Source: an uncultured Clostridia bacterium (GTDB lineage: Bacteria > Bacillota > Clostridia > UMGS1883). Taken from it: a stretch of DNA of 64,000 bases. The stretch is taken from NCBI GenBank assembly GCA_947589005.1, contig CANPZO010000002.1, forward strand, positions 7,713 through 71,712. The letters are read 5' to 3'. A program made the translations under genes and the position numbers. Below, piece after piece: positions 3,907-46,855 of the stretch. The notes under the pieces were generated by a model. That model did no database searches. It was not told the DNA's origin and saw only the letters and a list, made by a program, of their open reading frames with translations. Position 1 is the stretch's first letter, and every line of letters begins with the position of its first letter.

Positions 3907-6900
3907 TTACACTATTTCCACTGTCTCAGCTTCGCCGAGGGGCGTCATTGCTCGCAGCGATCTCCACACAAAGACCTTGGCCCGCTTAATATCCGCGGAA
4001 AGCGGAATATCAATGGTGTAGGACGCGCTGCCGTCACATTCCTGACTTCTCACCGACAAAAGTTTGCCATTGCCATCATATGCCGTCACAATTACAAACG
4101 CATTTTCGAGAGGTTCTGAGGCATCGACATAAAACCTGTAGCTGGACGAGAGCTTTTTATATGTAGTGGCCGTGAGCTTTTCACCGGGTTTGTCGCCAAC
4201 ATCGCCATCATCAAGGCCCACGTCAGGCTCCTGACCGGTGGTGAAAGACTTTATGTCGCCAAATTCAGTCATCTGGAACATATATGTTGTCTCCGAAAGC
4301 AGTCCGTCAATACGCACGCTGTAATCTCCGCCGCCGGCCTCGACCTCGGTCAAAATGACGTTTTCCGGCTCGGAGGCCATCCAATAGCGGATGTATCTCA
4401 CTATGCCGTCGCCCTGACCGGATACGCTGCCGCTCAGTGTCGCGTACCAACTGTCCACATCTTCCGCGTCATTGGTGACCGCCGTAACCTTTGTGCTGGT
4501 GCCGGCCACGTCTAAGGTAATAACGGTGTCCTTGTCGATGATGAAGCTATTGCCGCCCAGCTCCTCGCCGTTGACGTAAATCGCGTCGACCGTATACTCG
4601 GCGGCGGCTTCGGCGTTTACGCGGATTTCCGCGCCGTCAAGAGCTTTAATTCCGCTTGAACCGTCCGCCATCAGGAACACCGCTGAGGCGATCTCCGCCG
4701 GATCGGCGTCCACGTTTTCAAGGGAGCCGGCGGCGTTGGCCGTGGCCTGAACGGTGGCTCTGTATTCGGGAGTTATTTCTCCAAAGGTGGCGTACACGCT
4801 GCTGTCGCCGCTGACCTCGAAGGTGGAGCCGACGGTCTCGACGCCGTTGACGTAAATTTTGCCCAACACATAGCCCTGGTCAGGAACGGCGGAGACGGTG
4901 ACGATCTCGCCGTCCACGGCTTGGGACTTGTCCACGGTCACCGTACCGTGCTCCACCGCGCCCACGCTTATCTCGTTAAGGCAGTCGGTGTACAGGGTGG
5001 GGAGCTGACCCTCTCTTATCACCCATACGGCGTCGGGATTTTCTTGGAGATAGTCCATGGACTGGTAAGGCGTACCGAAAACTCTCTGCTGGAAGGACGC
5101 GCTCTTAAGCTGAGACATGGGTCGCTTGGTCTCGCTTGTTTCAACCTTTTTGCCGCTCGTCGTCAGCTTGAGACCGTCGTTGACATGGTTGTTTTGATAT
5201 GTGGCTGATAAATTGATTTCGCCAACAATATCGCCAACTTTAGAGCCGGTGTTATTGGAAATTATTTCATTAACGATAACAACAACGTCGTTTACGACGC
5301 CACTGCCTGACGCACCGCCAATATTTGCTTTACAATTAGCGGATATTACGCCGTTTACTTTTGCGAAACATTTTTTGCAGTCACCTTTGCCTGTCAAACC
5401 GCCAATTTTAATATTTGCTTTCTCATTTTTATTCCCATTGCATACAATTGCACCACCTTGATATTGGCTATCTTCGATGATTCGAGACATATTCCCCGCT
5501 ATGCCGCCAACATACATATCCTTTGCTCGGTTAGAGTTTACGCAAATGCTGTCATCGTCTGATGTAAACTTTACTGTACAGCGAAGGATGGAATCCGTAC
5601 ATATGCCAACAAGCCCGCCAATATTAAACGTGCTGTATGAGGTGTCGTTATAATATAGTTCTGTAGGATTACTGGTCAATTGTGCGGCGGATACTGTACA
5701 ATTGTATATCATTCCTTCTGAAGCACCGACCATACCGCCCACACTCGTATATTGACCAACAGTGCCGGAAATGGTCATAAGACTATCTTGGGACGTTACT
5801 TCGCAGTCAGTTAGATTGCCATCTATGCATCCTGACAATTGTCCTACTGTTAAATTTCCCCAGTTAACATCTCGATCAAGTGAAATAAAACATGTGTATG
5901 CCGAGCAATTTATGATGTCTCCTGTAATATCACCCAAAAGGCAGCCGAGACAACCCTCATCAGCAAATGAAACTCCTGATACGTTTACATATGTAGCTTT
6001 GCAACTGTCAATGTTTAAACATAATCCGCGTCCTAAAAGTGCTCCCACATATCCGTCACCATATCTATTGTCCATAGTAAAGCCATGGATATCTCCTGAC
6101 ACAGCTACATTTTTCAGCTCGCCAAATTTACCTGATTCCCAGTATGATTTTTTCCCTTTCGCATACCCAAAAATACCAACATAGCCTTCATAAGCCTTGG
6201 TGATCCTCAAATCCGAAATAGTATAGCCGTTGCCGTCAAACGAGCCGCGAAAATACTGATAATCGTTGCCGTAAAGACCGATGGGCACCCATTCGGTGTT
6301 GCCGAGGCTGATGTTGCCGGTAAGCTCGTAGTATTCATACTCCGGATCCGAGGTTTGGGAATTTACCCTTTGTGCAAGATAGGCGAGCTCGGCGGCGCTG
6401 GATATCTGATAGGGGTCGTCCTTGGTGCCGCTGCCGCCGGCAAAGGCCGTGGCCGTGCCGCCGCTCCACGAGCTGTCGCCCCAGACCGCGTAAAGGGTGG
6501 CGTCGTCCTCAAAGGTGTAGTCCATGCCGAGGCGGTATTCCGGCGCGGAAGCGTCGTAGCTCTTCGCCCAGCCACGAAGATAGCAGCCGTCCTTTATGGC
6601 CGAATTGGGCATACGCATGGTGTCGCCGTAGGTCAACTTCTGGTCCTGGAGCTCGCCCTTGCCGCCGTTGAGGTCAAAGTGTATGTCAAAGACCTTTGGT
6701 TCCCATACGGCGTAGAGGGTTATGTTTGTGTTTCTGTTATATCTGCCGCCGGCCTCGTATGAAGCGTAAGCCGCGGTTCGGCTTGAGGCCCAGCCCAGAA
6801 AATTATAGCCCTTTTTTGTGGGCACGGTACGGGACAGGGTCAGGGGCTGATCCTGTATTTTGGACTGCTGGGCGGGCGCGCCAGTGCCGCCGTTGGCGTC

Positions 6901-7965
6901 ATACTGCACGGTATAGGTGTTGTATATCCGGAAATCGTCACAGCTTACGGTCTTTTCCTGACCGGTATTAGTGTTGCGGACAATAAGGCTCGCGGAGTAG
7001 CTGCCGGCGGAGAGGCCGTTTACGCGGTGCTCGATGGCGTTCATGCTGTAGGTGGCGTAAAGGCCGCCGTTTTGGTAAAGCTGGAGGGTATAGTCCGTGG
7101 CGTTGGAAGCGTTGCCGCGCTTGAAGGTGGCGCTCCCGCCGGTTTTGTCAACCGTTCTTGTGAGAACGATATTGCCGATGGGATAGCACGAGCGGCAGCT
7201 TGTCACGCTTCGGGTGGAGCCGGTGTACTCCTTAGCCCCGCAGGACGTACACGTTTTGTACTCCTGATGCGGGTGGCCGCTTTCTAATTGAGTGATCCAG
7301 CTGTGGGTATGGGCGGCGGGTTTCTGGGCCGGTGAAGTCAGATTGCAGCTTCCGCTCGAAATGTACCAGTATTGGTTCAGGTTGCCTATTCGTTGGTCTT
7401 GCGTATCTCCGGATAAATAAGCCTGTGTAAGTTTAATACGGCCTGAGGGAATGCCAGAGGCTGGGTCAGCACAATAGACCGTATCCGAAGAAGCGTCGTA
7501 GTCAGTCGCCAAAACAGCATGGCGGCGTTTGGAGGGGTAGCTGTCATTAGGATACATATAGATAACTACGCCTTCCGCATGCTCACTGAGCAAAGAAATG
7601 AGCTTGTTTTTCTTATCCGCCGAAGAACCGGAAAACATACCGTATTTTACGGTCATTCCGGCATAAGAAAAACTAAGTCTTTGTCCCGCACCGGATACCC
7701 ATCCATAAGGCTCAACCGCGCTTTCTGTTATAGAATCCCAGTTTTCGTTGCCGCTTAAAAGCGCGTTCCTGCGAAGCATCATTGTTACAGAGGCCAAGGT
7801 ACACCTGCCTTTGCCCGACTGCTTTTTAAACACCGACGGATCATTTGCTGATGGAAGCGCCATAGTTTCGGCATCCCCTGTGCTCGCAAACGAAGCCGCC
7901 GGCACAAAGCTCAGAACCATTGCCATACAGACAAGCATGGCTAAAAGTTTTTTCCACTTTATCAT
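3907..7965 (-). CDS. Large secreted surface protein with several domain-like segments
   Basis: Start is the MIKWKK ATG with AAGGAGG RBS (the upstream ATG lacks an RBS). Signal peptide present. Segments: C39-like papain-fold peptidase motif 'GKGRCTLASVTMMLR'; two 'YNFLGW...YAVWEP' Listeria-Bacteroides repeats; a long Gly/Asn-rich beta-helix region; FN3-like; C-terminal recurrent 'YDGNGKLL...VFVWRSLRAMTPL' module. Confidence 0.75.
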   Translation of the reverse strand: MIKWKKLLAMLVCMAMVLSFVPAASFASTGDAETMALPSANDPSVFKKQSGKGRCTLASVTMMLRRNALLSGNENWDSITESAVEPYGWVSGAGQRLSFSYAGMTVKYGMFSGSSADKKNKLISLLSEHAEGVVIYMYPNDSYPSKRRHAVLATDYDASSDTVYCADPASGIPSGRIKLTQAYLSGDTQDQRIGNLNQYWYISSGSCNLTSPAQKPAAHTHSWITQLESGHPHQEYKTCTSCGAKEYTGSTRSVTSCRSCYPIGNIVLTRTVDKTGGSATFKRGNASNATDYTLQLYQNGGLYATYSMNAIEHRVNGLSAGSYSASLIVRNTNTGQEKTVSCDDFRIYNTYTVQYDANGGTGAPAQQSKIQDQPLTLSRTVPTKKGYNFLGWASSRTAAYASYEAGGRYNRNTNITLYAVWEPKVFDIHFDLNGGKGELQDQKLTYGDTMRMPNSAIKDGCYLRGWAKSYDASAPEYRLGMDYTFEDDATLYAVWGDSSWSGGTATAFAGGSGTKDDPYQISSAAELAYLAQRVNSQTSDPEYEYYELTGNISLGNTEWVPIGLYGNDYQYFRGSFDGNGYTISDLRITKAYEGYVGIFGYAKGKKSYWESGKFGELKNVAVSGDIHGFTMDNRYGDGYVGALLGRGLCLNIDSCKATYVNVSGVSFADEGCLGCLLGDITGDIINCSAYTCFISLDRDVNWGNLTVGQLSGCIDGNLTDCEVTSQDSLMTISGTVGQYTSVGGMVGASEGMIYNCTVSAAQLTSNPTELYYNDTSYSTFNIGGLVGICTDSILRCTVKFTSDDDSICVNSNRAKDMYVGGIAGNMSRIIEDSQYQGGAIVCNGNKNEKANIKIGGLTGKGDCKKCFAKVNGVISANCKANIGGASGSGVVNDVVVIVNEIISNNTGSKVGDIVGEINLSATYQNNHVNDGLKLTTSGKKVETSETKRPMSQLKSASFQQRVFGTPYQSMDYLQENPDAVWVIREGQLPTLYTDCLNEISVGAVEHGTVTVDKSQAVDGEIVTVSAVPDQGYVLGKIYVNGVETVGSTFEVSGDSSVYATFGEITPEYRATVQATANAAGSLENVDADPAEIASAVFLMADGSSGIKALDGAEIRVNAEAAAEYTVDAIYVNGEELGGNSFIIDKDTVITLDVAGTSTKVTAVTNDAEDVDSWYATLSGSVSGQGDGIVRYIRYWMASEPENVILTEVEAGGGDYSVRIDGLLSETTYMFQMTEFGDIKSFTTGQEPDVGLDDGDVGDKPGEKLTATTYKKLSSSYRFYVDASEPLENAFVIVTAYDGNGKLLSVRSQECDGSASYTIDIPLSADIKRAKVFVWRSLRAMTPLGEAETVEIV

Positions 7966-8084
7966 GTATATTCCTCCTTGTTTTTTTCTCATTATAACAT
8001 ACTATCTTTAAAAAAGCAATACTATCTCTATAAATTTATAAAAAATGTCTTTAAAAAGGATATAATATATTTGGTGATGATATA

Positions 8085-8414
8085 ATGAATTTGAAAAACA
8101 TAGGAAAAAACGTCAAGCAAATACGGAAGTCACGTAACTTGACCCAAGAAAAGCTGGCCGAGGCTATTGATATTTCCACCGTTCATATGTCACACATTGA
8201 AACAGGCAGCGTCTGCATGAGCCTCGACTGCCTGCTTTACCTGTGTACGGTTCTTGGAACCACGCCAAACGACATTTTGTTAGGCGAATTTGACCTGCCG
8301 GTCGAGGGGCAGGTGCGCATATCTGACGAAAAAATAAAAAGGCTCACCGCCGACGAGCTTTTGTTTATAGGCCGCGTCGCCGATTTGTTGAATGAAATTA
8401 AGCTGAACAGATGA
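8085..8414 (+). CDS. Xre/Cro-C1 family HTH transcriptional regulator
   Basis: HTH_3 motif 'IRKSRNLTQEKLAEAIDISTVHMSHIETG'. Confidence 0.8.
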   Translation: MNLKNIGKNVKQIRKSRNLTQEKLAEAIDISTVHMSHIETGSVCMSLDCLLYLCTVLGTTPNDILLGEFDLPVEGQVRISDEKIKRLTADELLFIGRVADLLNEIKLNR

Positions 8415-8692
8415 GGCCCGATATCCCTTTTGAAAACTCTATGCAACTGTTTACCGGCAAAATCAACGAGTTGACAGAGGAAAACGAGCGGCTTAACCGA
8501 GAAATAACTGAGAAAAAAGCCTCACTACCCGCCGCCCCTCTATCAACAGATGAAATCATGGCCTTAAAGCAAGACTTCATCACCTATATGCTTGACGAGA
8601 ACAATCTCCCGATTTGTAAAAAATGCCTTCAATCACTGATTGAGGGCATTTTTATTTATGAGGATGAAGTCAAGATAGTTTTCAACATTTAA
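8411..8692 (+). CDS. Hypothetical coiled-coil protein (93 aa)
   Basis: ATGA overlap with the upstream Xre gene. C-terminus '...CKKCLQSLIEGIFIYEDEVKIVFNI' faintly recalls a recombinase C-terminus (weak). Confidence 0.4.
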   Translation: MRPDIPFENSMQLFTGKINELTEENERLNREITEKKASLPAAPLSTDEIMALKQDFITYMLDENNLPICKKCLQSLIEGIFIYEDEVKIVFNI

Positions 8693-8699
8693 ACCTACA

Positions 8700-9231
8700 T
8701 CTGTCCCCATTTTGAGCCTATCCTCACCATAAGAGGATAGGCTCCTTTCGGGCATGATTTGTAAAATTCAAATATACATCTACCTATGAATTTAAGATAT
8801 CAGCTATATGCAGATGAGCAGATGTTTTCATCTGCATATCATGCGCACTCTTTCGAAGATAGTTTTTACCAATAACTTACTGCACTTTATAAATCCATGC
8901 TCCCCCGCTCCCCCTTGTTTAATCTATCACGCATGCAGGGATAGAACGATTTTTCATGTGCATATATGGTTATACAGCTTTAGTTAAAGAGATTATTATT
9001 TTCTATAAGGTCTGTGTAATATTATCAACAGAAGATGAGACAAGTACATATATCATCTGAAGATAGCTATTATATATTTTCATAGCAAGATGAATTATGT
9101 AACTCTATCATCTGCGGATAGATTTTTTTAAACCTCATCTTTCCATGATAACTTCATTTTCACTAAAAATTTTTTAAAGTTATTTTTATCAGGTACTTAC
9201 TGCACTTTCGTCTCCAAGGTGGGGAATTTGA
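8700..9231. repeat. AT-rich non-coding region with multiple short inverted repeats around a 'catctg' core and 14-bp direct repeats 'acttactgcacttt' (8873 and 9195)
   Basis: For example 'atgcagatga...tcatctgcat', 'agatga...tcatct', 'ctatcatctgcggatag'. The direct repeats are exact. Confidence 0.6.
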
Positions 9232-9258
9232 CGGTATACGCACCTTCTCCGCCAACAA

Positions 9259-9312
9259 AACCCCCACTTGAGGGCGAAAAATCCCAAAGCTTAAAGGGCT
9301 TTGGGATTTTTT
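9259..9312 (+). terminator. Rho-independent terminator (copy of 3134..3186)
   Basis: 'cccccacttgaggg' then 'aaaaatcccaaagcttaaagggctttgggattttttt'. Confidence 0.65.
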
Positions 9313-9441
9313 TGTGTCTTATTGCGGTATTGTAGTAGGGGAAATGTGATGTTGTTATAGGATTTTTCAATCGCTCATGCACCAAAGCTCCTTTCAGATA
9401 TATATCATTACTTTGATATTATCAGAAAGGAGTTTTTTATT

Positions 9442-9810
9442 ATGAAAAAAATCTGGACAAAAGCGCAGTGCCATGAGCTTATGGGGCTTCCGCCTCCTGT
9501 TCATGTTAAGATTAATGAAACTGTCGCAATACTCAATTTTTACTATGGCGAGAACAGGGACGTTGACAAAAATCTCGGCGGATACGTTCTGTTGATAGAG
9601 AGCGAAAATAATTTTGAAAGCCTTAAAGCTATCTTTCATGAGGAGATAGAAAACCTGACCGCAGAATATGTGGATATAATCTCATGCGAAAACACGTCCG
9701 CATATGTATGCGCTCAAATTGTGCTCTCTGACGATTATTCCGTCGTAATGCTTATTCCCCGTCCAATAACGCCAAACTCGCTGTTAGAACAGGCAAATTC
9801 AAGCTCATAG
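9442..9810 (+). CDS. Hypothetical protein (122 aa), paralog of 3314..3682
   Basis: About 93% amino-acid identity to the copy A gene, with the same RBS context. Confidence 0.6.
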   Translation: MKKIWTKAQCHELMGLPPPVHVKINETVAILNFYYGENRDVDKNLGGYVLLIESENNFESLKAIFHEEIENLTAEYVDIISCENTSAYVCAQIVLSDDYSVVMLIPRPITPNSLLEQANSSS

Positions 9811-10084
9811 GTAATGCCATAAGCGGTTGATGAAACATATATTATCATTTTGATATATACCAGCGGCCGACTGTGCAGGAACATAGTCCATCGCTCCTAT
9901 TCTACTTAAGAGAGACTTGTATTTTATAAAAAGCTGTGTTATTATACATATGATTTTACTCATCAATAAACTACATCTCAGATCTTGGTGTAAATAAAAA
10001 AATTATATAAAAACCGAACCTTTTACGCTGATTTTGTCACTATATAATGTCAGTACTGAAAAAATTATGAAAGTGGGATGCCAT

Positions 10085-15991: not shown

Positions 15992-17855
15992 AATGATGAA
16001 AAATATTATCGGAATGGTTCTGGGGCTGGCTGTCGTGCTGACTGCGTCAGCATGCAGCGCGGCGGAAAACGACAGCGGCAACGCTTCGAGCTTTATCCCC
16101 GACGCCAGACGGACTCAGACCATTTATTTTTGGGACGAGGGAAATGTCCCGGCCACCACAAGCTATACCGTCAACAACGGCAATTACTTTGATCCGCCCG
16201 AGTTCCGGCCGAATATGATTTTTTATCCGGCGGACGAGGGTACGCAGATAAAGGGCGCCGTGATGATAAATCCGGGCGGGGCTTTCATGTTCCGTGGCGA
16301 CAATGAAGGCGCTCCGGTGGCGAGAATGCTCAACCGTTACGGCTATCAGTGCTTTGTCGTCAATTACCGGCTCCGTCCCTATACCCAGGAGGAGGGCGCC
16401 CTCGACCTGGCGAGAGGCATAAGGTTCGTGCGGAAACACGCCGACATCTACGGCATCGACCCCCGGGATATAGCGTCAATCGGTTTCAGCGCCGGAGGAA
16501 TTCTGAGCGGAGAAGTGGCCATGAACTTTGACGGGCTTGTGAACGGGACCGCCATCGATAGTGGCTATGTCCCCGATGAACTGGATCAAGTGAGCGCCGA
16601 CTTGGCCGCGGAAGGGATGTTCTATTCATTTTACGGCAGGCTAAGCGTGGCGTCCCTCGACGTCGATAAGTTTCGGGAGGCCGAGCTGCCGCCAACCTAT
16701 GTCTGCTATGGCAGCAACGAGGTGTTCCGAGGTCAGATCGAAAATCACATTGTCGCCCTCCGCGAGGCGGGTATCCCTGTCGAGACTAATATGCTTGAGG
16801 GTCTGTACCACGGCTTTGCCTCGGGCGGCGGCTGGGGAGATGATTTTGACCGCTGGCTGAGCGGGGTTTTCGCGGAAAACGGCGGGGAGCTTACCGCTGA
16901 CTTTGCCTCGGCGGAACTGCGCGGCGGCGAGCTGACATACTCCCTCGACATAAAAGGGAACCCCGACAGAGCCGACATAATAGTCGCCTTTTACGACAGC
17001 GGCGGGACATTGGCGGGCGTGAACATAAATAAGCCGGAGGGCACGATAAACGCCGGTGGCGGAGGCACGCTAAAGCTGTTCCTGTGGGAGAAAGGGGCGC
17101 TCAGACCACTGACCGCGGCGAAAACCCTGCGTTTCGGCGGCGAACGGGAAACTCACCTCAACAATGTACTCGCCGGAGCGGACGGCAATATCCACTACAC
17201 CTACATTCTTCCGGCGGGGTACGACGAAAGCAAAACCTATCCCATGCTGATGACCTTGCCCGGCTGGAGCAATCTGTTCAATACCATCGAGACGACGCCC
17301 CTTACACAGAACCGTTACGCCGAGGGCAACGCGGCCGCGTGGACCGAGCTGGGAGGGGACTTCATCGTGGTTTCGCCCAGCCTCACCGACTGGGGCGCGA
17401 AATCGGCCCGTCAGACTGTTGAGCTTGCCGACTATTTTGTGGAAAACTTCCCCGTTGACCCAAAGCGGATATACGCGGCGGGCTTTTCCGCCGGAGGAGA
17501 GACTCTTTCGAGGGCGGTTGACATGAGGCCGGAGCTGTTCGCGGCCTATCTGCATATCTCGTCCCAGTGGGACGGCGGCTTTGAAAACGCGGCCTCCGCG
17601 CGTCTGCCGGTGTATATCTTCATAGCGGAGAACGACGAATACTACGGCTCGGCTCAGGCCCGCCGGGCATACGCTTCTCTTCGGGAAGCCTACGCCGCCG
17701 AGGGCATGACGGATGAGGAAATCGACGGGCTGCTGGTTCTGGACGTGCGGGACGATGAGTTCTTCAACGATCTGGGCATATACAGCTACCATGGCGGCGG
17801 AGGCGTCGCCGCAAACCAACAGGATATTATTTTGTGGATGTTAGGGAGGAATTAA
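15992..17855 (+). CDS. Secreted lipoprotein with two alpha/beta-hydrolase (esterase) domains separated by the recurrent YD..G.L/F.W..PL module
   Basis: Signal 'MMKNIIGMVLGLAVVLTASAC'. Domain 1 has 'NPGGAFMF' and the 'GFSAGG' nucleophile elbow. Domain 2 has 'GFSAGGETLS' (esterase / PHB-depolymerase-like). The middle carries 'AFYDSGGTLAGV...LFLWEKGALRPL'. Confidence 0.8.
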
Positions 17856-21887: not shown

Positions 21888-23981
21888 ATGAAAAAAATAC
21901 TTGTAACCCTCCTGTGCCTGACGCTGATAATGACGGGCTCGGCCTGCGGCGCGGCGGAGGACGGTGATATAATCAGCGCCGAACGGCCCGTGTTCGACGG
22001 CGGCGCGATAAGGTTTTCGATAACCTCGAAAACCGACGCCGACGATGTGCTGACAGCCGCCGCCCTCTACAGCGGCGGCAGGCTGGAAGGGGTGAAGGTG
22101 AACACTTTGAACGGCGAATTTGCCGTAAACAGCGGCGACGAATATATGATGAAAATTTTTGCTTGGGAAAGGGACACCTTAAGACCTCTGACCTCCGTTT
22201 TGACCTTTGACGGCCTGAAAGCGGGGGATAAGCGCCTGCCCGGCGAGGAGCTGGACGAAATCCCCGCGCCCTATTATAACGCCTCCAACGAACCGGGAAC
22301 TCTTGAGGAGCTGTATTACGACACATACGAGTCCTTTTCATACGAGAGCAAGACCCGTCCCCTTACTAAGCGGGCCATAATCTACCTCCCATACGGCTAT
22401 GACGAGGGCAAGCGGTACAATATTTTTTACTATATGCACGGCGGCTGGAGCAACGAGACTACCTCCCTCGGCGTACCGGGCAGGCCCTCAGCCTTAAAAA
22501 ACGTTATTGACAACGCCATAGCGAACGGCGAAATGCAGCCGATGATAATCGTGTGTCCCACTTATAACAACACTAACGAAAACGGTCAGGACAGCGACAA
22601 TTTCAGCCTGGCCCTCCAGCTCAACCGTCAGTTTCACAACGAATTGGTGAACGACCTGATGCCGGCGGCGGAAAGCAGGTACAGCACCTACGCTGCGGAC
22701 GTGACGCCGGAGGGGCTGGCCGCTTCCAGACGGCATCGGGGCTTCGGGGGCTTTTCCATGGGTTCGGTAGCCACGTGGCGAACCTTTCAGAACTGCCTGG
22801 ACTACTTCTACTATTTTATGCCCATGAGCTGCGGCACCTCCCTTGACGATGAAAACATATTCAGCGCCGCCGAGGGCCGGGATCAAAGCGATTATTTTGT
22901 ATGGGTCATGACCGGCACAAACGATTTTGCTTACAGCTACGTCAACAATCGCGTCAATAAGATGCGTGGCTCGAAGTATTTTACCGAAAATGAGAACTTT
23001 ATTTACCGCGTAAAGGAAGGGTACGACCACGGCGGTCTGGCGAGCATGGAATACAGCTATAACGGATTGAAATATTTTTGGAACGAATACGGCGCGACCG
23101 GCGGCCAATCGCACGCCGCCTACACCGCCGAAACAAAAATTTCCGACGTGATAAGCGACCCCGCCTTCGGCGATTACGGGCGGCTGCTGTTCCCGGTGAA
23201 CAGCGGCTATTACGGCGGAAGCACTCTGGGCGATCTGTCCATGACATGGTACAACTATATCGACCCGGACAAGACCGTGGAGATAGCAAATTATATGAAG
23301 TCCCACGCGGATGCCGGAGATACGGTGTTTTATGACATTTACACCGAGGCCGAAAAGACGGCTGACCCCGCCAAGCGCAACACCGGCCTGTTCTTCTTCC
23401 GGGGTGAGCCGGGCGCCAAGTTCGCCATCTGCAACGCCGGCGGAGGGTTTGCCTACGTGGGAGCGATGCACGACAGCTTTCCCCACGCTTTGGAGCTGAG
23501 CAAAAAGGGCTACAACGCCTTTGCCCTGATATACCGTCCCGGCTGGGACACCGCCATGGAGGACCTGGCCCGGGCCATCGCCTTTGTGCATGAAAACGCC
23601 GGCGAACTTCAGGTGGATGTTACGGGCTACTCTCTTTGGGGCGGCAGCGCCGGGGCGAGAATGGCCGCCGACCTCGGCACATACGGCACGGCCTATTACG
23701 GCGAAAAGTCCTATCCCAAGCCGGCCGCCGTCATAATGCAGTACACCGGCCATTCGGAGGTCACCGGCGACGAGCCGCCCACCTACAGCTGCGTGGGCAC
23801 AAGCGACGGCATCGCCAATTACCGCACCATGGAGCGGCGCATAAACGCCATAAAAGCCAACGGAACGGACGCCGAGATAGAAGTGTTTGCGGGTCTGCCC
23901 CACGGCTTCGGCCTTGGCACAGGAACCGTGGCCGAGGGCTGGTTAGATAACGCCGTGGCCTTTTGGGAAAGAAATATGTAA
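21888..23981 (+). CDS. Secreted lipoprotein: N-terminal recurrent module plus esterase-family domain plus alpha/beta-hydrolase (BD-FAE/lipase-like) domain
   Basis: Signal 'MKKILVTLLCLTLIMTGSAC'. Recurrent module 'ALYSGGRLEGV...IFAWERDTLRPL'. Esterase signature 'IIYLPYGYDEGKRYNIFYYMHGGW'. Second domain has 'YSLWGGSAGA' GxSxG. Confidence 0.8.
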   Translation: MKKILVTLLCLTLIMTGSACGAAEDGDIISAERPVFDGGAIRFSITSKTDADDVLTAAALYSGGRLEGVKVNTLNGEFAVNSGDEYMMKIFAWERDTLRPLTSVLTFDGLKAGDKRLPGEELDEIPAPYYNASNEPGTLEELYYDTYESFSYESKTRPLTKRAIIYLPYGYDEGKRYNIFYYMHGGWSNETTSLGVPGRPSALKNVIDNAIANGEMQPMIIVCPTYNNTNENGQDSDNFSLALQLNRQFHNELVNDLMPAAESRYSTYAADVTPEGLAASRRHRGFGGFSMGSVATWRTFQNCLDYFYYFMPMSCGTSLDDENIFSAAEGRDQSDYFVWVMTGTNDFAYSYVNNRVNKMRGSKYFTENENFIYRVKEGYDHGGLASMEYSYNGLKYFWNEYGATGGQSHAAYTAETKISDVISDPAFGDYGRLLFPVNSGYYGGSTLGDLSMTWYNYIDPDKTVEIANYMKSHADAGDTVFYDIYTEAEKTADPAKRNTGLFFFRGEPGAKFAICNAGGGFAYVGAMHDSFPHALELSKKGYNAFALIYRPGWDTAMEDLARAIAFVHENAGELQVDVTGYSLWGGSAGARMAADLGTYGTAYYGEKSYPKPAAVIMQYTGHSEVTGDEPPTYSCVGTSDGIANYRTMERRINAIKANGTDAEIEVFAGLPHGFGLGTGTVAEGWLDNAVAFWERNM

Positions 23982-35689: not shown

Positions 35690-37391
<1,702 letters not shown>

Positions 37392-37767: not shown

Positions 37768-38250
37768 ATGGCGTCGTTGATAATATATTATTCTCAGGCG
37801 CGTGGGAATACGAGGCGCATCGCGGAAATGATACGTCAGGCCACGAACTATGACATCGCCGAAATAGAAACCGCGTTTCCGTATAAGGGAACTTATGAGG
37901 AAATCGTCGATCAGGGAAAGGCCGAGGTCAGCGAGGGCTATATGCCGGAGCTGAGGCCCTTGGGTAAAATACTTTCCGGCTATGACACCGTCATAATCGG
38001 CACGCCGACATGGTGGTACACCATGGCCCCCGCCGTCCGCGCCTTTCTCACGGAAAACGATTTCAGCGGAAAAACCGTTGTTCCGTTTCACACTCACGGC
38101 GGCTGGCCCGGACACACCCTTGACGACATGAAGGCGCTGTGCAAGGGGGCGAGCTTTAAAAACGAGATGTCCGTGCAGTTTGATTTTGAGGGCGGGAGCA
38201 CTCTCATAACGCCCGAGGATAAGCTGCGGGATTGGATAAAGAAGCTTTAA
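37768..38250 (+). CDS. Flavodoxin-family protein (cytoplasmic)
   Basis: RBS AAGGAGG. 'LIIYYSQARGNTRRIAE' and 'VIIGTPTWWYTMAP'. 160 aa. Confidence 0.8.
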   Translation: MASLIIYYSQARGNTRRIAEMIRQATNYDIAEIETAFPYKGTYEEIVDQGKAEVSEGYMPELRPLGKILSGYDTVIIGTPTWWYTMAPAVRAFLTENDFSGKTVVPFHTHGGWPGHTLDDMKALCKGASFKNEMSVQFDFEGGSTLITPEDKLRDWIKKL

Positions 38251-38259
38251 TAAGTTTAA

Positions 38260-38430
38260 GGCAATACCGCACAAAGACCGCTTTAAAGCTTTGCACCCGT
38301 CTTGCTTGCATCTTTTCCGACGTTTCTTACGAAAACTCCTTGAAATACGACAGGTATCCTATGGTCGTTTTCGTAATTCCGTCAAAAAATCTGCGGCGCA
38401 ATACGGGCACAATCTCTGTGCGGTATTGCC
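38260..38430. repeat. REP-like palindromic element (arms GGCAATACCGCACA / TGTGCGGTATTGCC) split by an about 140-bp insert; related hairpin at 63779..63811
   Basis: Arms at 38260-38273 and 38417-38430. The inner region carries a degenerate second copy. Confidence 0.55.
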
Positions 38431-38465
38431 TTAATATAACCACTATAACTACTGGAGGCGAGAAA

Positions 38466-40205
38466 ATGAAAAATCTCAAAAAAATCACGGCCTTTGCCCT
38501 GAGCCTTGCCGTACTCTGTCTCGGCTTCGGGCTGCTTGTCCGCACGCAAAAGACCACCACGGCCTACGCCGCGGACACCGGCTACGAGACCACTGACCCT
38601 GACGCTCCCGAGGTGCTGTTCACCTCGGAGATAACCTCCGAGTCGCTGCTCCGTATATATAAAGCCCTTGGCTTTGACGCGGAGGGCGAGGTGGCCGTCA
38701 AGATGTCCACCGGCGAGCCGCCAAACAGCAACTATCTCCGTCCCGAGCTGATAAAAGACCTTATCCAGGAGGTGGACGGCACCATCGTCGAGTGCAACAC
38801 CGCCTACGGCGGACGGCGCTCCAGCACCGCCATGCACCGGCAGGTGATAGAGGACCACGGCTTTCTCGACGTGGCAAAGGCCGTTGACATAATGGACGAA
38901 GACGGGGACATCACCATTCCCGTTCCCACGCCTGCCACAGGCGCGCGTTCGACCATAACCACCAACCGCGTGGGCGCCCATCTTACGAACTACGACAGCC
39001 TTATCTCGCTGGCCCACTTCAAGGGCCACGCCATGGCGGGATACGGCGGAGCTATCAAAAATATGTCAATCGGCATCGGCTCGGTGGCGGGCAAGTGCCT
39101 TATCCACACGGGCGGCAGATCCAGTACAAGTCCCTGGGGCGGCAACCAGAACGCCTTTCTTGAATCCATGGGCGACGCCACAAGCAGCGTGGTAAATCAG
39201 TTTGACGGAAAAGTCGTTTATATCAACGTGATGAACCGGTTGTCAATAGACTGCGACTGCGACGGCAACCCCTCCGAGCCGGATATGCACGACATCGGCA
39301 TACTGGCCTCCTATGACCCGGTGGCGCTGGATCAGGCTTGCCTTGACCTGATTTCTCAGGCCGACGGCAACACGAGATTTTTAAACCGTGTCAACGGTCA
39401 AAACGGCTTCCACACCCTTGAACACGCAGAGGAGATAGGTCTCGGCAGCCGAAGCTACCGCATACGGGATATCGACGCCGAGCCGGTGGCCGTCACCATG
39501 AGCTATGACAACGGACAGCTTACGGTTTCGGGCCTTGACGGCGAGGCGGCCCTCATCAGAGTTTCATATTCCGACGGCGCTTTGGCGGGAGTCGATATTT
39601 CCTCCGTTACCAACGGGACGCGGAACATGGAGGCCGAGGGCGGCGACAGGCTTTTCCTCTGGAACAGTCTCATGTCCATGCAGCCCCTGTGCCCGTCGGT
39701 GACCGTGCCCGACGGCGGGCCCAAGACCCTCGTGGTCTACTACTCCGCCACCAACACTACCGAGGGAGTGGCCGAAAAGATAGCCGCCTACACCGGCGCG
39801 GATATTTTCGAGATCACTCCGTCCGACCCCTACACCGACGACGACCTTGACTGGACGGACAATAACAGCCGCGTTGTGGCCGAGCATGACGACCCCGACG
39901 GCCGCCATGTGGAGCTTGAGACTACCGACGTTCCCGACTGGACAAGCTACGACACCGTATATATCGGCGCGCCCATATGGTGGGGCGAGTTCTCGTGGGT
40001 AATCGACGATTTTGTAAAGAACAACGATTTCACGGGTAAAACAGTTATACCTTTCTGCACCTCAATGTCCTCCGGTTTGGGCGACAGCGGGCGGCACGTC
40101 GCTGAAATGACGTCCTCCGGCAACTGGTTGGACGGCAAACGCTTTGGCACACGGGCAAGCGAAGCAGAGGTACAGGAATGGATAGACAGCTTGGGGCTTA
40201 ATTAA
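38466..40205 (+). CDS. Secreted or anchored protein: DUF362 domain plus recurrent YS.G.L/F.W..PL module plus C-terminal extracellular flavodoxin-like domain
   Basis: RBS GGAGGCGAG. Anchor 'ITAFALSLAVLCLGFGLLV'. DUF362 paralog of 26919 ('IVECNTAYGGRRS...DCDCDGNPSEPDMHDIG'). The C-terminal 145 aa are nearly identical to the 35687 flavodoxin domain. Confidence 0.75.
   Translation: MKNLKKITAFALSLAVLCLGFGLLVRTQKTTTAYAADTGYETTDPDAPEVLFTSEITSESLLRIYKALGFDAEGEVAVKMSTGEPPNSNYLRPELIKDLIQEVDGTIVECNTAYGGRRSSTAMHRQVIEDHGFLDVAKAVDIMDEDGDITIPVPTPATGARSTITTNRVGAHLTNYDSLISLAHFKGHAMAGYGGAIKNMSIGIGSVAGKCLIHTGGRSSTSPWGGNQNAFLESMGDATSSVVNQFDGKVVYINVMNRLSIDCDCDGNPSEPDMHDIGILASYDPVALDQACLDLISQADGNTRFLNRVNGQNGFHTLEHAEEIGLGSRSYRIRDIDAEPVAVTMSYDNGQLTVSGLDGEAALIRVSYSDGALAGVDISSVTNGTRNMEAEGGDRLFLWNSLMSMQPLCPSVTVPDGGPKTLVVYYSATNTTEGVAEKIAAYTGADIFEITPSDPYTDDDLDWTDNNSRVVAEHDDPDGRHVELETTDVPDWTSYDTVYIGAPIWWGEFSWVIDDFVKNNDFTGKTVIPFCTSMSSGLGDSGRHVAEMTSSGNWLDGKRFGTRASEAEVQEWIDSLGLN
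39770..40197 (+). repeat. Near-identical (about 99%) duplication of 36090..36520 (flavodoxin-like domain coding sequence)
   Basis: Direct comparison. The antisense ORFs 36270..36473 and 39947..40150 translate identically. Confidence 0.85.
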
Positions 40206-43323: not shown

Positions 43324-43564
43324 ACAATACCTCCTCTCACGGTATACATTGTATCACGAAGTATTCAATTTGTCAATAGGGAAAATGAAAAAATTTAAAC
43401 ATAAAAAACAGATCCCCGGCGAAGGCGAGGATAATTTTATACTAATCTGTGCGGAAGAACTCTCCCCTTTCTTGTCCTTAGTATACATTCGGACGCGAAT
43501 ATTATTGACAGGTCAAACATTTTATGATATAATATATACAAGTAAATATGGAGGATTGATATTC

Positions 43565-46500
43565 ATGAACAGGAAATTTATTTCCGCCGTGTTGTCGGCG
43601 GCGCTGTTTATCGGTGCGTCATACGTTCCGGCGATTGCCGATGGCAAAAGAGCGACGCCTATGGGCGACAGAGTGACGCTCATAGTTGAAACGGAGGGGG
43701 CTCCGCTTTTGGAAACGAAAAACGCCGTCCTTATGGGGGCGTCGGAGTATATGGAAACGGACGAGGCGAAGGAAACGGAGGCGCAAATTTTAAGCGCGCA
43801 GTCGGCGGTAAAGTCCGACATTAAGAAGCGCGTGGGAGCGGACGTCAGCTCCGGCCGCACATACACGAGCGTTTTTAACGGATTCTCGGTAGAGGCTTAC
43901 GAAAGCGATATTGAAAAAATAAGGGCCGTTGACGGCGTAAAAAACGTGTACAAATCGGTAACCTTTGAAGTTCCGCCCGAGCCGGCATCGGGAGGCGAAA
44001 GCGAGCCGGGCTACGGCGCGGCGATGATGAACGCGCAGGCGATGTACGACGCGGGCTTTGACGGTCACGGAAAGGTTATCGCGATCATAGACGCCGCCTT
44101 TGACACGTCCCATGAGTTTTTCGCGTCCGGTGTTGAAGAGCCGGCGCTGACAAAAAGCAAGATACGCGAATTTATCGAAAACAACGAGTTTAACGTCGAT
44201 ATATCGGCAAATCAGGTCTATAGAAGCGAAAAAATTCCGTTCGCGTACGATTACTGTTACGGCGACGCGGACACATACAACGCGTTGGAAACTCACGGCA
44301 ACCACGTCGCGGGTATAGCGGCGGGTAAAAACGGCGTGTTTGAGGGTACAACCTTTTCGGGCGTCGCGCCCGAGGCGCAGCTTGTGCTTATGAAGGCCGG
44401 GTATGATGGCGATGACGGTTCAATGTCTATTGATGTGGTTATTGACGCGCTGGACGACGCGTCAAAGCTTGGTGTGTGCGCCGTGAATCTGAGTCTTGGA
44501 TCAACCATCGCGGAGTATGCTCCTTATGATACGGCCGTGGAAAATATGCGCAAAGCGGGCATCGCGGTCGTATGCTCGGCGGGTAACTCTGACAGATACG
44601 AGGAAACGACTGATAATCCCGACTACATATACAACAACGTACCGGCGTCGGTCTCCGCGTCAACGTCGGTCGCGTCGATTGACCCGAATAAAAAGTGGGT
44701 CTTCACCGGAGGCTTTACGCTGGGCGGCGGTGAAAGATTGAGTACGCCTCTGTACAGCAAGCTGTTTTTTGAAAAATTTGCGGATAAGTACCACGATTAT
44801 GTTTGCGGCGATACTCTGGCCGATTTTCAGGCTATGGGCGATATCTCGGGAAAAATAGCGGTGGTTCCGAACGGGACGGACGCGAAAAGCGGCAAACTGC
44901 TTGAAATGGGTGTTGTAGGTATTATAGTCGTGTCGGAAGACGAACAGATCGGGAGAGTAATTACGGCAAGCGATGAGATACCGGGCATAATGGTGAGCAA
45001 AACCGTCGGTGATCGGCTCAGGAGTGCGGAAACCAAGACCATTCAAACCGACAGGACGGAAAACAGGACTATAGAGGAGGACAGCGCATCGGGCATGGCA
45101 TACTATACGAGCTGGGGCACCCAGTCCGACCTTGAGCTTAAGCCTGAAATCACCGCTCCGGGCAGCGATATACTTTCGGCGGGGAATGACGACGAGTACG
45201 TAAACGACAGCGGCACATCCATGGCGTCTCCTCAGATAACGGGCGCGATGGCGCTTATGAGCGGATTTGTCGATACGAAGTGGCCCGACGTAACGGGCGC
45301 GGATAAGGTCGCGCTTATGGAAAATCTGCTGATGAGCTCGGCGGATATTGTGTTCCAGGACGCGGAAAAGACGCTCCCCGAGTCGCCGAGACGGCAGGGC
45401 GCTGGCCTTGCAGACCTTTCGGACGCGCTGACGCTCCCCGTAATACTGAAGGGCGGCACGGGCAAGTCGAAGCTCAGCCTGAGGGACCGGCTTGACGACA
45501 ATATAACGCTTAAATTCACGGCGGAAAATCTGACGGGAGAGGACGTGACATACGACAGTATTAAAATATACGCGTTCACCGACAATTACGAGGAGAGGGA
45601 CGGTGAAAAAATAATCACCGACTCCGTGCCGCTGGAATTTGAGCCCGCCGCCGATAATCCCGAGAGCGTGACAGTGCCCGCGAACGGGGAGAAGGAAATA
45701 ACGCTCAAAATAACCCTCGACAGCGAACAGACAGCCGCCAACAAGGAAATTTTCACAAACGGCTTCTGGGTTGACGGCTATATAGTCCTCTCGTCAAGGG
45801 ACGGCTCGGCGACGGAGGCGAGTATGCCGTACACGGGCTTCTACGGCGACTGGACATCCTTTGACGCTATGACTCCCTCGTATTTCGAGGAGGGCGGCAG
45901 CGATGAAAACGGCGGCTTGATGGCGTCAGACACCGTGCTCGGCACAAATGTGTTTGTTCCCGAGGACGCGCCGGACAGGAGCGAATACGAAAGCGAGGAT
46001 TATGTGGGTCTTTCAAACAGCATTGATCTTTACTATAATATAAATATTCGTATGCTGCGTTCACTGCGCGATGCCACTACAACGGTTAAAAATTCAAACG
46101 GCGATATTATCATTACGGAGCCAGCGTATATGGGACTGTCGCGTAAGGAGGATTATATGGACATTGTTCCGATTGGCGTGGGAGACTTGCCGGACGGCGA
46201 CTACACCGCGATGGTATCGGGTACTCTCGCGTATGAGAGCGAGCGGAGCAGAACGGAGGAAAAGACGTATAAATTCTACGTCGATTCTATTCCGCCAAAG
46301 ATAAAAAATCCGAGAATTTACGAGGAGGACGGAAAAACCTACGCGTCCTTTGAGGCGAGCGACAATCGCTATCTGATGGGCGCCGCGGCGTGTGACGCCA
46401 CCGGCCAAACGGTTACCGAGGCGGTGAAAGCCGAAAAGGAAGCGGAAATAAAAATAGATGTGACCGGCATGGACATGGAAAGCCTTGAGTTTTCCGTCAG

Positions 46501-46855
46501 CGATTACGCGTTTAACGAAAACGTGTTCACAATCGGCACGGTAAGCGCGAAAATCACGGACAGTGTCATAGACGGCGGAAACGTCGCGTTTGTCGCGAGC
46601 GTCACGAATATGTCGGCCGATGCGGACGCGGACATTATAATGGCGCTGTATGACGGCGACGGCAGACTTATCGGCGTGAATATGCAAAACGCTTTTCTCG
46701 AAAGCGGAGAGAAGAAAATGTTCACATTCGATTTTACCGATGTATCGGAGATGGCTGACGCGAGACTGTTTGTCTGGGAGCATGGCAAAATGGCGCCGCT
46801 GGGGGCGGTGGGAACGACTACAGAAAACAAAAATCCATCAGGGGACATCGGTTGA
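43565..46855 (+). CDS. Cell-envelope subtilisin-like serine peptidase (S8; I9 propeptide, PA domain insert, FN3-like, C-terminal recurrent module)
   Basis: RBS GGAGG. Signal peptide. Catalytic triad contexts 'VIAIIDAAFD', 'HGNHVAGIAAG', 'GTSMASPQITGA'. C-terminal 'ALYDGDGRLIGV...LFVWEHGKMAPL'. Confidence 0.85.
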   Translation: MNRKFISAVLSAALFIGASYVPAIADGKRATPMGDRVTLIVETEGAPLLETKNAVLMGASEYMETDEAKETEAQILSAQSAVKSDIKKRVGADVSSGRTYTSVFNGFSVEAYESDIEKIRAVDGVKNVYKSVTFEVPPEPASGGESEPGYGAAMMNAQAMYDAGFDGHGKVIAIIDAAFDTSHEFFASGVEEPALTKSKIREFIENNEFNVDISANQVYRSEKIPFAYDYCYGDADTYNALETHGNHVAGIAAGKNGVFEGTTFSGVAPEAQLVLMKAGYDGDDGSMSIDVVIDALDDASKLGVCAVNLSLGSTIAEYAPYDTAVENMRKAGIAVVCSAGNSDRYEETTDNPDYIYNNVPASVSASTSVASIDPNKKWVFTGGFTLGGGERLSTPLYSKLFFEKFADKYHDYVCGDTLADFQAMGDISGKIAVVPNGTDAKSGKLLEMGVVGIIVVSEDEQIGRVITASDEIPGIMVSKTVGDRLRSAETKTIQTDRTENRTIEEDSASGMAYYTSWGTQSDLELKPEITAPGSDILSAGNDDEYVNDSGTSMASPQITGAMALMSGFVDTKWPDVTGADKVALMENLLMSSADIVFQDAEKTLPESPRRQGAGLADLSDALTLPVILKGGTGKSKLSLRDRLDDNITLKFTAENLTGEDVTYDSIKIYAFTDNYEERDGEKIITDSVPLEFEPAADNPESVTVPANGEKEITLKITLDSEQTAANKEIFTNGFWVDGYIVLSSRDGSATEASMPYTGFYGDWTSFDAMTPSYFEEGGSDENGGLMASDTVLGTNVFVPEDAPDRSEYESEDYVGLSNSIDLYYNINIRMLRSLRDATTTVKNSNGDIIITEPAYMGLSRKEDYMDIVPIGVGDLPDGDYTAMVSGTLAYESERSRTEEKTYKFYVDSIPPKIKNPRIYEEDGKTYASFEASDNRYLMGAAACDATGQTVTEAVKAEKEAEIKIDVTGMDMESLEFSVSDYAFNENVFTIGTVSAKITDSVIDGGNVAFVASVTNMSADADADIIMALYDGDGRLIGVNMQNAFLESGEKKMFTFDFTDVSEMADARLFVWEHGKMAPLGAVGTTTENKNPSGDIG

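Follow-up and report, generated by a model that had tools for sequence, protein, structure and literature searches.

The 64,000-nt stretch of DNA from an uncultured Clostridia bacterium analysed here (hereafter the window) encodes five secreted proteins that share copies of one homologous domain, a module of 81-97 aa predicted to fold as a seven-strand immunoglobulin (Ig)-like beta-sandwich. The module is a new domain family without a Pfam name, not a new kind of biology. Within the FxLYD/CARDB-like Ig superfamily it forms a divergent branch. The family is large, extracellular and restricted to Bacillota, where it is found mostly in gut Clostridia. Its role, as we infer it, is probably surface retention or binding. 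More specifically, and tentatively, the module may be a non-catalytic accessory domain that retains secreted proteins at the cell surface or positions them there, likely by binding a component of the envelope.

Five copies of one domain in the window

The original prediction had assigned a shared module to five proteins of the window, and each of them does carry it where it had been placed (Table 1). That is, copy 1 forms the end of a surface protein with a signal peptide and Flg_new/InlB B-repeat domains, and copy 2 separates the two alpha/beta-hydrolase halves of a tandem esterase with a lipoprotein-type signal (...LTASAC), with an Abhydrolase_3/BD-FAE half before it and a Peptidase_S9/DLH-like half after it. 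Copy 3 is located directly behind the signal/lipobox (...MTGSAC) of another esterase, with Esterase (PF00756) and BD-FAE domains downstream. The DUF362-Flavodoxin_4 protein harbouring copy 4 is also secreted, and its likely start is the Met at 38466; that of the S8 peptidase with copy 5 is the Met at 43565. Two of the window carriers are probable lipoproteins and thus already tethered to the membrane. The module is N-terminal, internal or C-terminal in the window, and non-C-terminal in three of the five proteins, in keeping with its earlier description as positionally promiscuous across unrelated scaffolds. The module itself is non-catalytic. Calling all five carriers secreted enzymes was correct as to the secreted scaffolds, but does not apply to the surface protein, which has no demonstrated catalytic domain (Pfam recognises only Flg_new repeats). 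Furthermore, the module with its seven strands is considerably longer than the approximately 55 aa first proposed.

Table 1. Location of the five module copies within the window
Copy	Position	Strand	Place in the encoded protein
1	3910..4179	-	aa 1272-1361, C-terminal 90 aa of 1361-aa surface protein 3907-7992(-)
2	16887..17141	+	aa 322-406 of tandem esterase 15924-17855(+), internal
3	21960..22217	+	aa 35-120 of esterase 21858-23981(+), N-terminal
4	39477..39719	+	aa 416-496 of DUF362-Flavodoxin_4 protein 38232-40205(+), internal
5	46538..46828	+	aa 1064-1160 of S8 peptidase 43349-46855(+), near C-terminus

When leave-one-out HMMs were built from four copies each, the left-out copy was in every case the best non-training match among 797 six-frame segments, with E-values of 1e-5, 3e-17, 4e-7, 8e-3 and 2e-11 for copies 1 to 5, respectively, and with the next matches at E of at least 0.07. 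The proposed alignment thus holds up when tested by profile, with E-values between 8e-3 and 3e-17. A 135-sequence family HMM recovered the same five copies and no sixth one in the window. The literal regular expression first given for the module did not survive, as it was fully matched by none of the five copies (motif 1 by two, motif 2 by one). When relaxed to the core Y[DS]x(1-2)GxL...[KR][ILVM]FxW x(6-7) PL, the pattern matched exactly the five copies and yielded no match in 200 shuffles.

The copies are just 22-38% identical to one another, and this low pairwise identity, together with the failure of the literal pattern, is what could be said for a chance likeness of short motifs without common ancestry. 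That reading, to which we assign almost no probability, is already refuted by the leave-one-out E-values, by the homologues recovered in hundreds by profile search (see below) and by the shuffles of the relaxed motif; the same confident fold predicted for two copies also speaks against it. The five stretches are homologous copies of a single domain. Recent shuffling of the module within the genome was considered and rejected, in that each window copy shares 40-60% identity with modules that orthologous scaffolds carry elsewhere, compared to the 22-38% of the window copies among themselves. Copy 4 is 50-60% identical to modules located N-terminal to Flavodoxin_4 in other genomes.

Predicted fold and conserved residues

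AlphaFold2 modelled copies 1 and 5 with a confidence (pLDDT) of 93.9 and 91.6, respectively, and with seven strands in both cases. The predicted structure is a two-sheet sandwich of about seven strands that superposes on Ig/Fn3-like domains, i.e. an Ig-like/E-set fold. Foldseek searches against the PDB returned only generic Ig/Fn3-like sandwiches (E of at least 6.6e-4, TM 0.5-0.76). The neighbours were the Wzt carbohydrate-binding domain and, with a probability of 1.0, Ig-like domains of GH2/GH3 enzymes, monobodies/FnIII, DUF1425 and CsgC. Sequence searches of the PDB with two profiles gave chance-level matches only (teneurin YD repeats, SSB and a WD-repeat protein). An identity with YD/RHS repeats was rejected because the likeness is limited to the YDxxGxL hairpin.

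The signature of the family consists of a beta-hairpin, A-x-Y-D-x2-G-x-L, followed further downstream by K-[VIL]-F-[LV]-W-[DEN]-S-x3-M-x-P-L-(C). In the consensus hairpin, [LVI]-I-x-A-x-Y-D, the Tyr is present in 99% and the Asp in 64% of members. The conserved positions (A35, Y37, G41, L43, K71, F73, W75, M81, P83 and L84 in the numbering of the family HMM) alternate as expected of core residues of an Ig fold. The highly conserved Y, G, L, K, F, W, P and L most likely determine the fold and do not form a ligand site, so that any ligand specificity would have to lie in the variable loops.

Size, distribution and domain position of the family

A profile of the five copies matched 439 cluster representatives (50% identity) at E ≤ 1e-3 among 1.84 billion. 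The exhaustive profile search was needed for this, since word-indexed searches with 5- and 57-sequence alignments retrieved only near-identical proteins of a related strain. A near full-length domain match was present in 131 of the 152 proteins examined. In addition, a scan of 185,579 species genomes with a degenerate DNA pattern gave 91 matches, compared to about 0.1 expected from the bit count; all 91 were confirmed by the family HMM and all belonged to Bacillota, mostly gut Clostridia. Only modules with the canonical KVFxWDSxxxMKPL form, which are 6-10% of the total, come within reach of this pattern. The window itself had no blastn match to any of the 91 loci, and one ENA contig of a related strain was recovered. 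Carriers for which complete genomes exist include Clostridium ihumii AP5, Paenibacillus sp. IITD108, Lachnospiraceae bacterium MD329 and Marinicrinis lubricantis.

The module is predominantly a C-terminal domain. Domain matches among the representatives were C-terminal in 78 cases, internal in 26 and N-terminal in 15, with tandem pairs in addition, and in about 70 of 98 ORFs from the species genomes the module lay within 12 aa of the ORF end. Overall, between about a quarter and a third of the copies are N-terminal or internal. A signal peptide, of the ordinary Sec or lipoprotein type, is present at the start of nearly all full-length members.

Relation to named families

The original prediction had found no named family for the module. 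This is still accurate for Pfam (2025 copy), but the NCBIfam model FxLYD_dom (NF038353), the closest named family, does reach some members, and Pfam CARDB reaches one above its cutoff. FxLYD_dom shares with the module a hydrophobic-x-hydrophobic-Y-D hairpin and a beta-sandwich core; the corresponding motifs of the window copies (VTAYD, VAFYD, AALYS, RVSYS and MALYD) are of the F-x-L-Y-D kind without matching it literally. FxLYD_dom matched 14 of 57 members at E ≤ 1 (best match 1.5e-7, 31.2 bits), and four of ten selected members passed its 23-bit cutoff (31.2, 24.2, 24.1 and 23.1 bits). None of the five window copies did. The S8 copy came closest, with 17.2 bits for the entire protein and 19.8 bits for the module alone; the other four were absent among the matches listed at E ≤ 10. 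In the alignment with a 94-aa family member, positions 3-69 of the 71-position FxLYD_dom model cover residues 14-77. The model, unlike the module, ends at the start of the KxFxW strand. Therefore, the invariant Trp, the MxPL loop and the last strand represent a family-specific C-terminal extension.

CARDB (PF07705, cell adhesion related domain found in bacteria; E-set Ig-like) is likewise an Ig-like sandwich on secreted bacterial proteins. It scored 30.4 bits, against a cutoff of 22.7, with the C-terminal module of one family protein (P0017), and produced a single match (1.7e-7) among 57 isolated modules. The other 56, including all five window copies (searched at E ≤ 10), gave none, and CARDB lacks the W...MxPL signature of the module. 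Big_15 (PF20622), a bacterial Ig domain, showed weak local matches to the surface-protein copy and to three of the 57 members, below its gathering cutoff of 27 bits (best 13.8 bits, E 0.05, 32 residues aligned). Public names were absent for the module in ten family proteins, one of which is called a 'cohesin domain-containing protein'. One search of literature full text with the term 'FxLYD' found no relevant paper, one joining Monoglobus, cell surface, C-terminal domain and pectin found none, and 'Cu_amine_oxidN1' occurred in none of the papers listed.

The module also resembles the T9SS C-terminal domain (PF18962/TIGR04183), a beta-sandwich of ~80-90 aa that in most cases forms the very C-terminal end of secreted proteins of various kinds. 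BspA-type LRR proteins are carriers of both, those of Bacteroidota ending in the T9SS domain, and two to three of the 57 members had sub-threshold Por_Secre_tail matches (E 0.02-0.09). With its similar size, its seven-strand sandwich and its mainly C-terminal location, the module could be taken for an export, sorting or maturation domain comparable to the T9SS C-terminal or PPC pre-peptidase domains, possibly cleaved. We nevertheless consider this improbable. The Por_Secre_tail matches lie far below threshold, and all carriers possess ordinary Sec or lipoprotein signals. Moreover, unlike the T9SS domain, the module is also found in N-terminal or internal positions (as in three of the five window proteins) and in tandem, and its hosts are monoderm Bacillota. 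To our knowledge, Bacillota have no T9SS and this system is confined to Bacteroidota-like diderms, which counts further against a sorting domain.

Domain partners

The partners of the module (Pfam lists of the top 25 families) include LRR_5/BspA (28 of 96), Flg_new, cohesin, RicinB, pectinesterase, PL11, GH53 and GH30, as well as S8, GDSL, CHAP, SASA, DUF362, Flavodoxin_4 and arabinofuranosidase. Many of them are carbohydrate-active (pectinesterase, PL11, GH53, GH30, arabinofuranosidase, SASA and esterases), which could suggest a carbohydrate-binding module (CBM) that directs enzymes to a polysaccharide of the diet or the host, for instance pectin. The invariant Trp, the conserved Lys and the weak structural likeness to the Wzt carbohydrate-binding domain, a starch-binding domain and GH2 Ig/CBM-like domains would agree with this. 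However, the module is found equally on S8 peptidases, CHAP and BspA-type LRR proteins, cohesins and DUF362/flavodoxin proteins, which have no glycan substrate in common. No Pfam CBM family matches it consistently (Mannosidase_ig matched three of 57 members at E of at least 0.003), and several carriers already possess bona fide CBMs (CBM6, CBM4_9, CBM96 or RicinB). We therefore regard a CBM as unlikely; partners that are functionally unrelated argue against a substrate-specific CBM and for a need common to all exported proteins.

Spread over many unrelated secreted proteins of one genome is also a property of dockerins, and the module could be a docking domain by which diverse secreted proteins plug into one shared receptor or complex on the surface. 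Cohesins or dockerins do occur in some carriers, and 37% of members have a conserved Cys directly behind the PL motif. Against this, no candidate receptor gene was identified, and a scaffoldin-like protein (P0012) with a signal peptide and three cohesins itself ends in two modules. Anchoring scaffoldins have SLH domains or sortase signals at this position, and anchoring of the scaffold fits better than docking onto it. Docking is, in our estimation, very unlikely.

Relation to other surface modules

Ten secreted multidomain proteins of the window have exactly one accessory module each, which is the present module in five, Cu_amine_oxidN1 in four and SLH in one, the SLH domains being on a GH5 protein (56773-58353). 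SLH domains constitute another anchoring system of the organism. Like the module, SLH, LPXTG and Cu_amine_oxidN1 are accessories on unrelated secreted proteins. SLH and Cu_amine_oxidN1 have no sequence similarity to it, and SLH domains are not known to be beta-sandwiches. Binding to the wall is established for SLH domains and sortase signals; we know of no proven anchoring function for Cu_amine_oxidN1. Within the window, two paralogues with the architectures Cu_amine_oxidN1-DUF362 (26919-28352) and Cu_amine_oxidN1-Flavodoxin_4 (35665-36528) can be compared to the DUF362-module-Flavodoxin_4 protein of Table 1 (38232-40205), in which the module takes the place of Cu_amine_oxidN1.

Among 251 module proteins, no match to SLH or Cu_amine_oxidN1 was detected by phmmer at E ≤ 1e-3 with the window sequences as queries, and no LPXTG-like motif was present in the last 50 aa, as judged by a test that is insensitive, being made up of single-sequence phmmer searches and a regular expression.

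Proposed role

The terminal position of most copies, the lack of co-occurring anchors and the substitution for Cu_amine_oxidN1 are circumstantial evidence that makes a putative binding or anchoring role plausible. The scaffoldin-like protein with three cohesins and two C-terminal modules also speaks for it. The module would then do for its carriers what SLH domains, sortase signals or Cu_amine_oxidN1 'stalk' domains do for other proteins of the organism.

An inert spacer or stalk is possible but on the unlikely side; it would be an Ig-like domain without a specific ligand that separates or orients catalytic domains, raises them above the membrane or wall, or aids their folding and stability. 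The Ig-like sandwich is generic and lacks a specific structural neighbour, and its conserved residues fit a core/fold pattern. Both are consistent with a spacer, as are the copies that are internal (esterase 15924 and the DUF362 protein), directly behind a lipobox (esterase 21858) or in tandem. For the window proteins, given the lipoprotein carriers and the N-terminal or internal copies in three of the five, a spacer fits as well as an anchor. On the other hand, spacer Ig domains such as Big_2 and fn3 are usually arranged in internal arrays and accompanied by true anchors, whereas in most cases no further domain follows the module, which ends at the stop codon, and it was never seen with SLH, Cu_amine_oxidN1 or LPXTG in the 251 proteins. 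A solitary C-terminal spacer would have nothing to space.

Going beyond retention at the surface as such, the module could be an unrecognised, Clostridia-specific retention domain that binds a lineage-specific envelope polymer and represents a fourth major way of protein display beside SLH, sortase/LPXTG and CWB2-type systems. We consider this broader proposal doubtful at present. If it is true, Monoglobus, Oscillospiraceae and Lachnospiraceae would be among the lineages that display exoproteins by means of the module, and the displayed cargo would comprise BspA-type LRR adhesins, cohesin scaffolds, pectinases, proteases and extracellular flavodoxins.

Implications for gut Clostridia

For gut Clostridia, among them Monoglobus, Oscillospiraceae and Lachnospiraceae, metagenome-assembled genomes are mostly all that is available, and annotation is poor as to how polysaccharide-degrading enzymes, adhesins and redox proteins are retained at the surface. 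With an HMM defined for the module, hundreds of C-terminal regions now described as 'hypothetical' would receive a label, and a match to it would mark a protein as extracellular and probably surface-exposed. Should the module be only a spacer, the gain would be limited to this better annotation. If it is a wall-binding domain, it could in addition serve as a display tag for engineering gut Clostridia.

A module shared by five secreted proteins

Translation of the ORFs located the pattern YxxGxL...FxW...PL in all five secreted proteins, at the places where the original prediction had put it, and the host architectures of the carriers were confirmed by Pfam. The predicted length of about 55 aa was too short, the domain spanning 81-97 aa. 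In a MAFFT alignment of the five copies nine columns are invariant (Y, G, L, V, F, W, P, L and T), and the alignment holds up statistically: when an HMM was built from four copies and run on 797 six-frame segments, the fifth copy was in each case the top non-training match (E-values of 1e-5, 3e-17, 4e-7, 8e-3 and 2e-11 for copies 1-5), with the background starting at E ~0.07. The regular expression originally proposed serves as a loose consensus, but in its literal form it matched none of the five copies in full; a relaxed core motif matched exactly the five copies and gave no match in 200 shuffles. No sixth copy was found in the window with either the five-sequence HMM or a 135-sequence family HMM. 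The carriers had been described as five secreted enzymes; all are secreted, but the surface protein is without a demonstrated catalytic domain.

Table. Module copies, other accessory modules and further ORFs in the window (for Cu_amine_oxidN1 and SLH the position is that of the carrier ORF)
Feature	Position	Strand	Location or carrier
Module copy 1	3910-4179	-	C-terminus of the 1361-aa surface protein
Module copy 2	16887-17141	+	between the two hydrolase halves of esterase 15924-17855
Module copy 3	21960-22217	+	immediately past the signal/lipobox of esterase 21858-23981
Module copy 4	39477-39719	+	between DUF362 and Flavodoxin_4 in protein 38232-40205
Module copy 5	46538-46828	+	C-terminal end of S8 peptidase 43349-46855
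Cu_amine_oxidN1 (PF07833)	17834-21691	+	CMD-cupin-COesterase fusion
Cu_amine_oxidN1	26919-28352	+	DUF362 protein
Cu_amine_oxidN1	35665-36528	+	Flavodoxin_4 protein
Cu_amine_oxidN1	54041-56248	+	Cthe_2159 protein
SLH domains	56773-58353	+	GH5 cellulase
DUF6017 protein	2019-2885		
Peptidase-like region	7400-7850	-	surface protein, aa ~50-200
Sigma-70-like ORF	10034-12571	+	845 aa
GTPase-NYN ORF	49692-52355	-	887 aa

Among themselves the window copies share only 22-38% identity, as against 40-60% with the modules on orthologous scaffolds in other organisms. These identities show the copies to be old, stable subfamilies that did not arise by recent shuffling.

Fold and named relatives

AlphaFold2, with the five-sequence alignment as its only input, gave confident models of seven beta-strands for the surface-protein copy (pLDDT 93.9) and the S8 copy (pLDDT 91.6). 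In these models YDxxGxL makes up the hairpin that joins strands 3 and 4, KxFxW forms strand 6, and MxPL is the loop preceding the last strand. Foldseek matched only generic Ig/Fn3-like sandwiches in the PDB (best E-value 6.6e-4, TM 0.5-0.76), including GH2/GH3 Ig-like domains, monobodies, the Wzt carbohydrate-binding domain, DUF1425 and CsgC/CsgH, and sequence searches of the PDB with the module profiles found no match.

That the module could not be matched to a named family is correct in that no family in the 2025 copy of Pfam covers it, but some members do reach NCBIfam FxLYD_dom (NF038353) and Pfam CARDB. When 57 modules were scanned singly, CARDB matched one (1.7e-7), and the most frequent matches were Mannosidase_ig, Big_15 and DUF7490, with three modules each, all sub-threshold; the module of one further member exceeds the CARDB cutoff (30.4 versus 22.7 bits). 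FxLYD_dom matched 14 of the 57 at E<=1, and its 23-bit cutoff was exceeded by four of ten selected members (31.2, 24.2, 24.1 and 23.1 bits). Of the window copies, a single one is among its matches listed at E<=10, and the S8 copy scored 17.2-19.8 bits, under the cutoff. Positions 3-69 of the 71-position FxLYD_dom model align to residues 14-77 of a 94-residue family member, so that the alignment stops where the KxFxW strand begins; the module family thus has an extension of its own, made up of the invariant Trp, the MxPL loop and the last strand. Judging from these comparisons, the module lies outside FxLYD_dom and CARDB as presently defined, and we file it as a separate branch, so far unnamed, within the FxLYD/CARDB-like Ig superfamily. 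A literature search under the name 'FxLYD' found nothing relevant, and the public records of ten family proteins hold no name for the module. Naming the family and providing an HMM for it would be worthwhile.

Size, conservation and distribution of the family

When 1.84 billion cluster representatives were searched exhaustively with the profile, 439 proteins matched at E<=1e-3, a count that slightly overstates true membership because it includes matches to the second half of the profile only. About 12 of the best 150 matches align in this way, in 5-8 short stretches (P0021, P0034-P0036, P0041, P0077, P0088, P0094, P0114, P0116, P0127, P0150 and P0151), and look like unrelated repeat proteins caught by the FxW-type motif. 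A near full-length domain was present in 131 of the 152 proteins examined. Over 135 modules, in family HMM numbering, conservation is highest for Tyr37 (99%), Pro83 (98%) and Trp75 (97%), followed by Gly41 (90%), Ala35 (85%), Lys71 (85%, with Arg in a further 11%), Leu43 (84%), Phe73 (80%), Leu84 (76%), Asp38 (64%) and Met81 (61%). A Cys at position 85, right behind the P-L motif, occurs in 37%, including the DUF362 copy of the window ('PLCPSV'); reading through the sequences by eye revealed no partner Cys.

Almost every full-length member starts with a signal peptide. Of the domain hits in the representatives, 78 are C-terminal, 26 internal and 15 N-terminal, with several tandem pairs, and about 70 of 98 ORFs from species genomes end within 12 residues past it. 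Furthermore, 185,579 species genomes were scanned with a degenerate DNA pattern encoding K[VIM]F-h-W[DEN]S-h-xxM[KR]PL (43 bits; by our own arithmetic, ~0.1 chance matches expected in 1.2e12 positions). The family HMM confirmed all 91 loci found, 3-5 of them in each of several genomes. All are from Bacillota, and most are from MAGs of gut Clostridia (rabbit, goat, buffalo, chicken, mouse and human). These MAGs are of Monoglobus, Ornithomonoglobus, Oscillospiraceae, Lachnospiraceae, Eubacteriaceae, Clostridiaceae and Epulonipiscium; the few isolates are Clostridium ihumii AP5, Lachnospiraceae bacterium MD329, Paenibacillus sp. IITD108 and Marinicrinis lubricantis.

Domain partners and neighbouring genes

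The partner set is markedly heterogeneous. BspA-type LRR_5 is the commonest (28 of 96 proteins); others include Flg_new, cohesin (in one protein with dockerin too), RicinB, pectinesterase, PL11 rhamnogalacturonan lyase, GH53, GH30, arabinofuranosidase, SASA, GDSL, S8 peptidase, CHAP, DUF362 and Flavodoxin_4. In the scaffoldin-like member P0012, a signal peptide and three cohesins precede two C-terminal modules. A signal-module-Flavodoxin_4 order is common in other genomes (P0004, P0009, P0024 and others), and in the window a signal-bearing DUF362/Flavodoxin_4 cluster (26919-28352, 35665-36528 and 38232-40205) shows three domain combinations. Such secreted, apparently extracellular proteins hint at a flavin-related or redox role outside the cell.

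Several other genes of the window are unusual. The CMD-cupin-COesterase fusion is a single ORF of 1285 aa with a lipoprotein-like signal, a carboxymuconolactone-decarboxylase domain (CMD), Cu_amine_oxidN1, two cupins and a full COesterase, and is also kept in a related-strain contig (ENA ERZ27060228). That contig (locus L092) is syntenic with window ~15.9-28.4 kb. At its positions 7898-9986, esterase 21858-23981 has an orthologue that is annotated as a pair of genes, one of 128 aa with the signal and the module and one of 574 aa with the catalytic portion, the break falling just past the module; since contig coverage is only ~3x, the split may be a frameshift error. The 887-aa ORF joins an EF-G/Tet(M)-like translational GTPase (GTP_EFTU, EF-G D2, III, IV and C) to a C-terminal YacP-like NYN nuclease domain, and may represent either a true fusion or two adjoining genes read as one. 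The 845-aa ORF, with N-terminal ECF-like sigma-70 regions 2 and 4, then a long extension that has a DUF3108-like match, looks like a sigma factor joined to an extracytoplasmic part. This gene, the DUF6017 gene and the surface protein gene lie in the first 16 kb, where GC is 0.44-0.51 (0.53-0.60 in the remainder); this stretch may have been acquired or be mobile. In the surface protein, the N-terminal region (…GKGRCTLASVTMM… …RRHAVLATDYD…) has no Pfam match at E<=1; by eye, it resembles a cysteine peptidase of the papain-like or C39-like kind, with a Cys/His pair.

Possible function

What the partners share is not a common substrate but export by monoderm bacteria. This argues against the module being a substrate-targeting CBM, which we consider less likely, and for a function that any exoprotein may need. 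We tentatively favour, with somewhat less than even confidence, a role in which the module would retain or position exoproteins at the cell surface, in line with the binding or anchoring domain originally suggested. In favour of this, it is usually the last domain, ending at the stop codon and sometimes in a tandem pair, a layout usual for wall-binding modules (SLH, CWB2, GW and LysM). Moreover, in insensitive tests, none of 251 module proteins showed similarity to the SLH or Cu_amine_oxidN1 domains of the window or an LPXTG-like C-terminus, which also favours retention. The same holds for the distribution in the window, where each of ten secreted multidomain proteins has exactly one accessory module type (this module in five, Cu_amine_oxidN1, the second promiscuous module, in four, and SLH in one) and paralogues swap them: Cu_amine_oxidN1-DUF362 and Cu_amine_oxidN1-Flavodoxin_4 versus DUF362-module-Flavodoxin_4. 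Finally, the two modules of P0012 sit where anchoring cellulosome scaffoldins carry SLH domains or sortase signals.

Several points weaken surface retention and keep a purely structural spacer or stalk a strong rival, in our view somewhat less likely than retention: two of the window carriers are probable lipoproteins and so have a tether already, three of the five window copies lie away from the C-terminus, the conserved residues resemble fold core residues, Cu_amine_oxidN1 has to our knowledge no proven anchoring role, and the co-occurrence tests are insensitive. Roles as a sorting domain or a docking module are less likely. With its detectable links to both FxLYD_dom and CARDB, the module adds to the Ig-like accessory domains already known from secreted proteins of bacteria. 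It may also be, although we think this unlikely, a Clostridia-specific surface-anchoring domain with a role comparable to that of SLH; if true, this would be clearly more interesting than a further Ig-like accessory domain.
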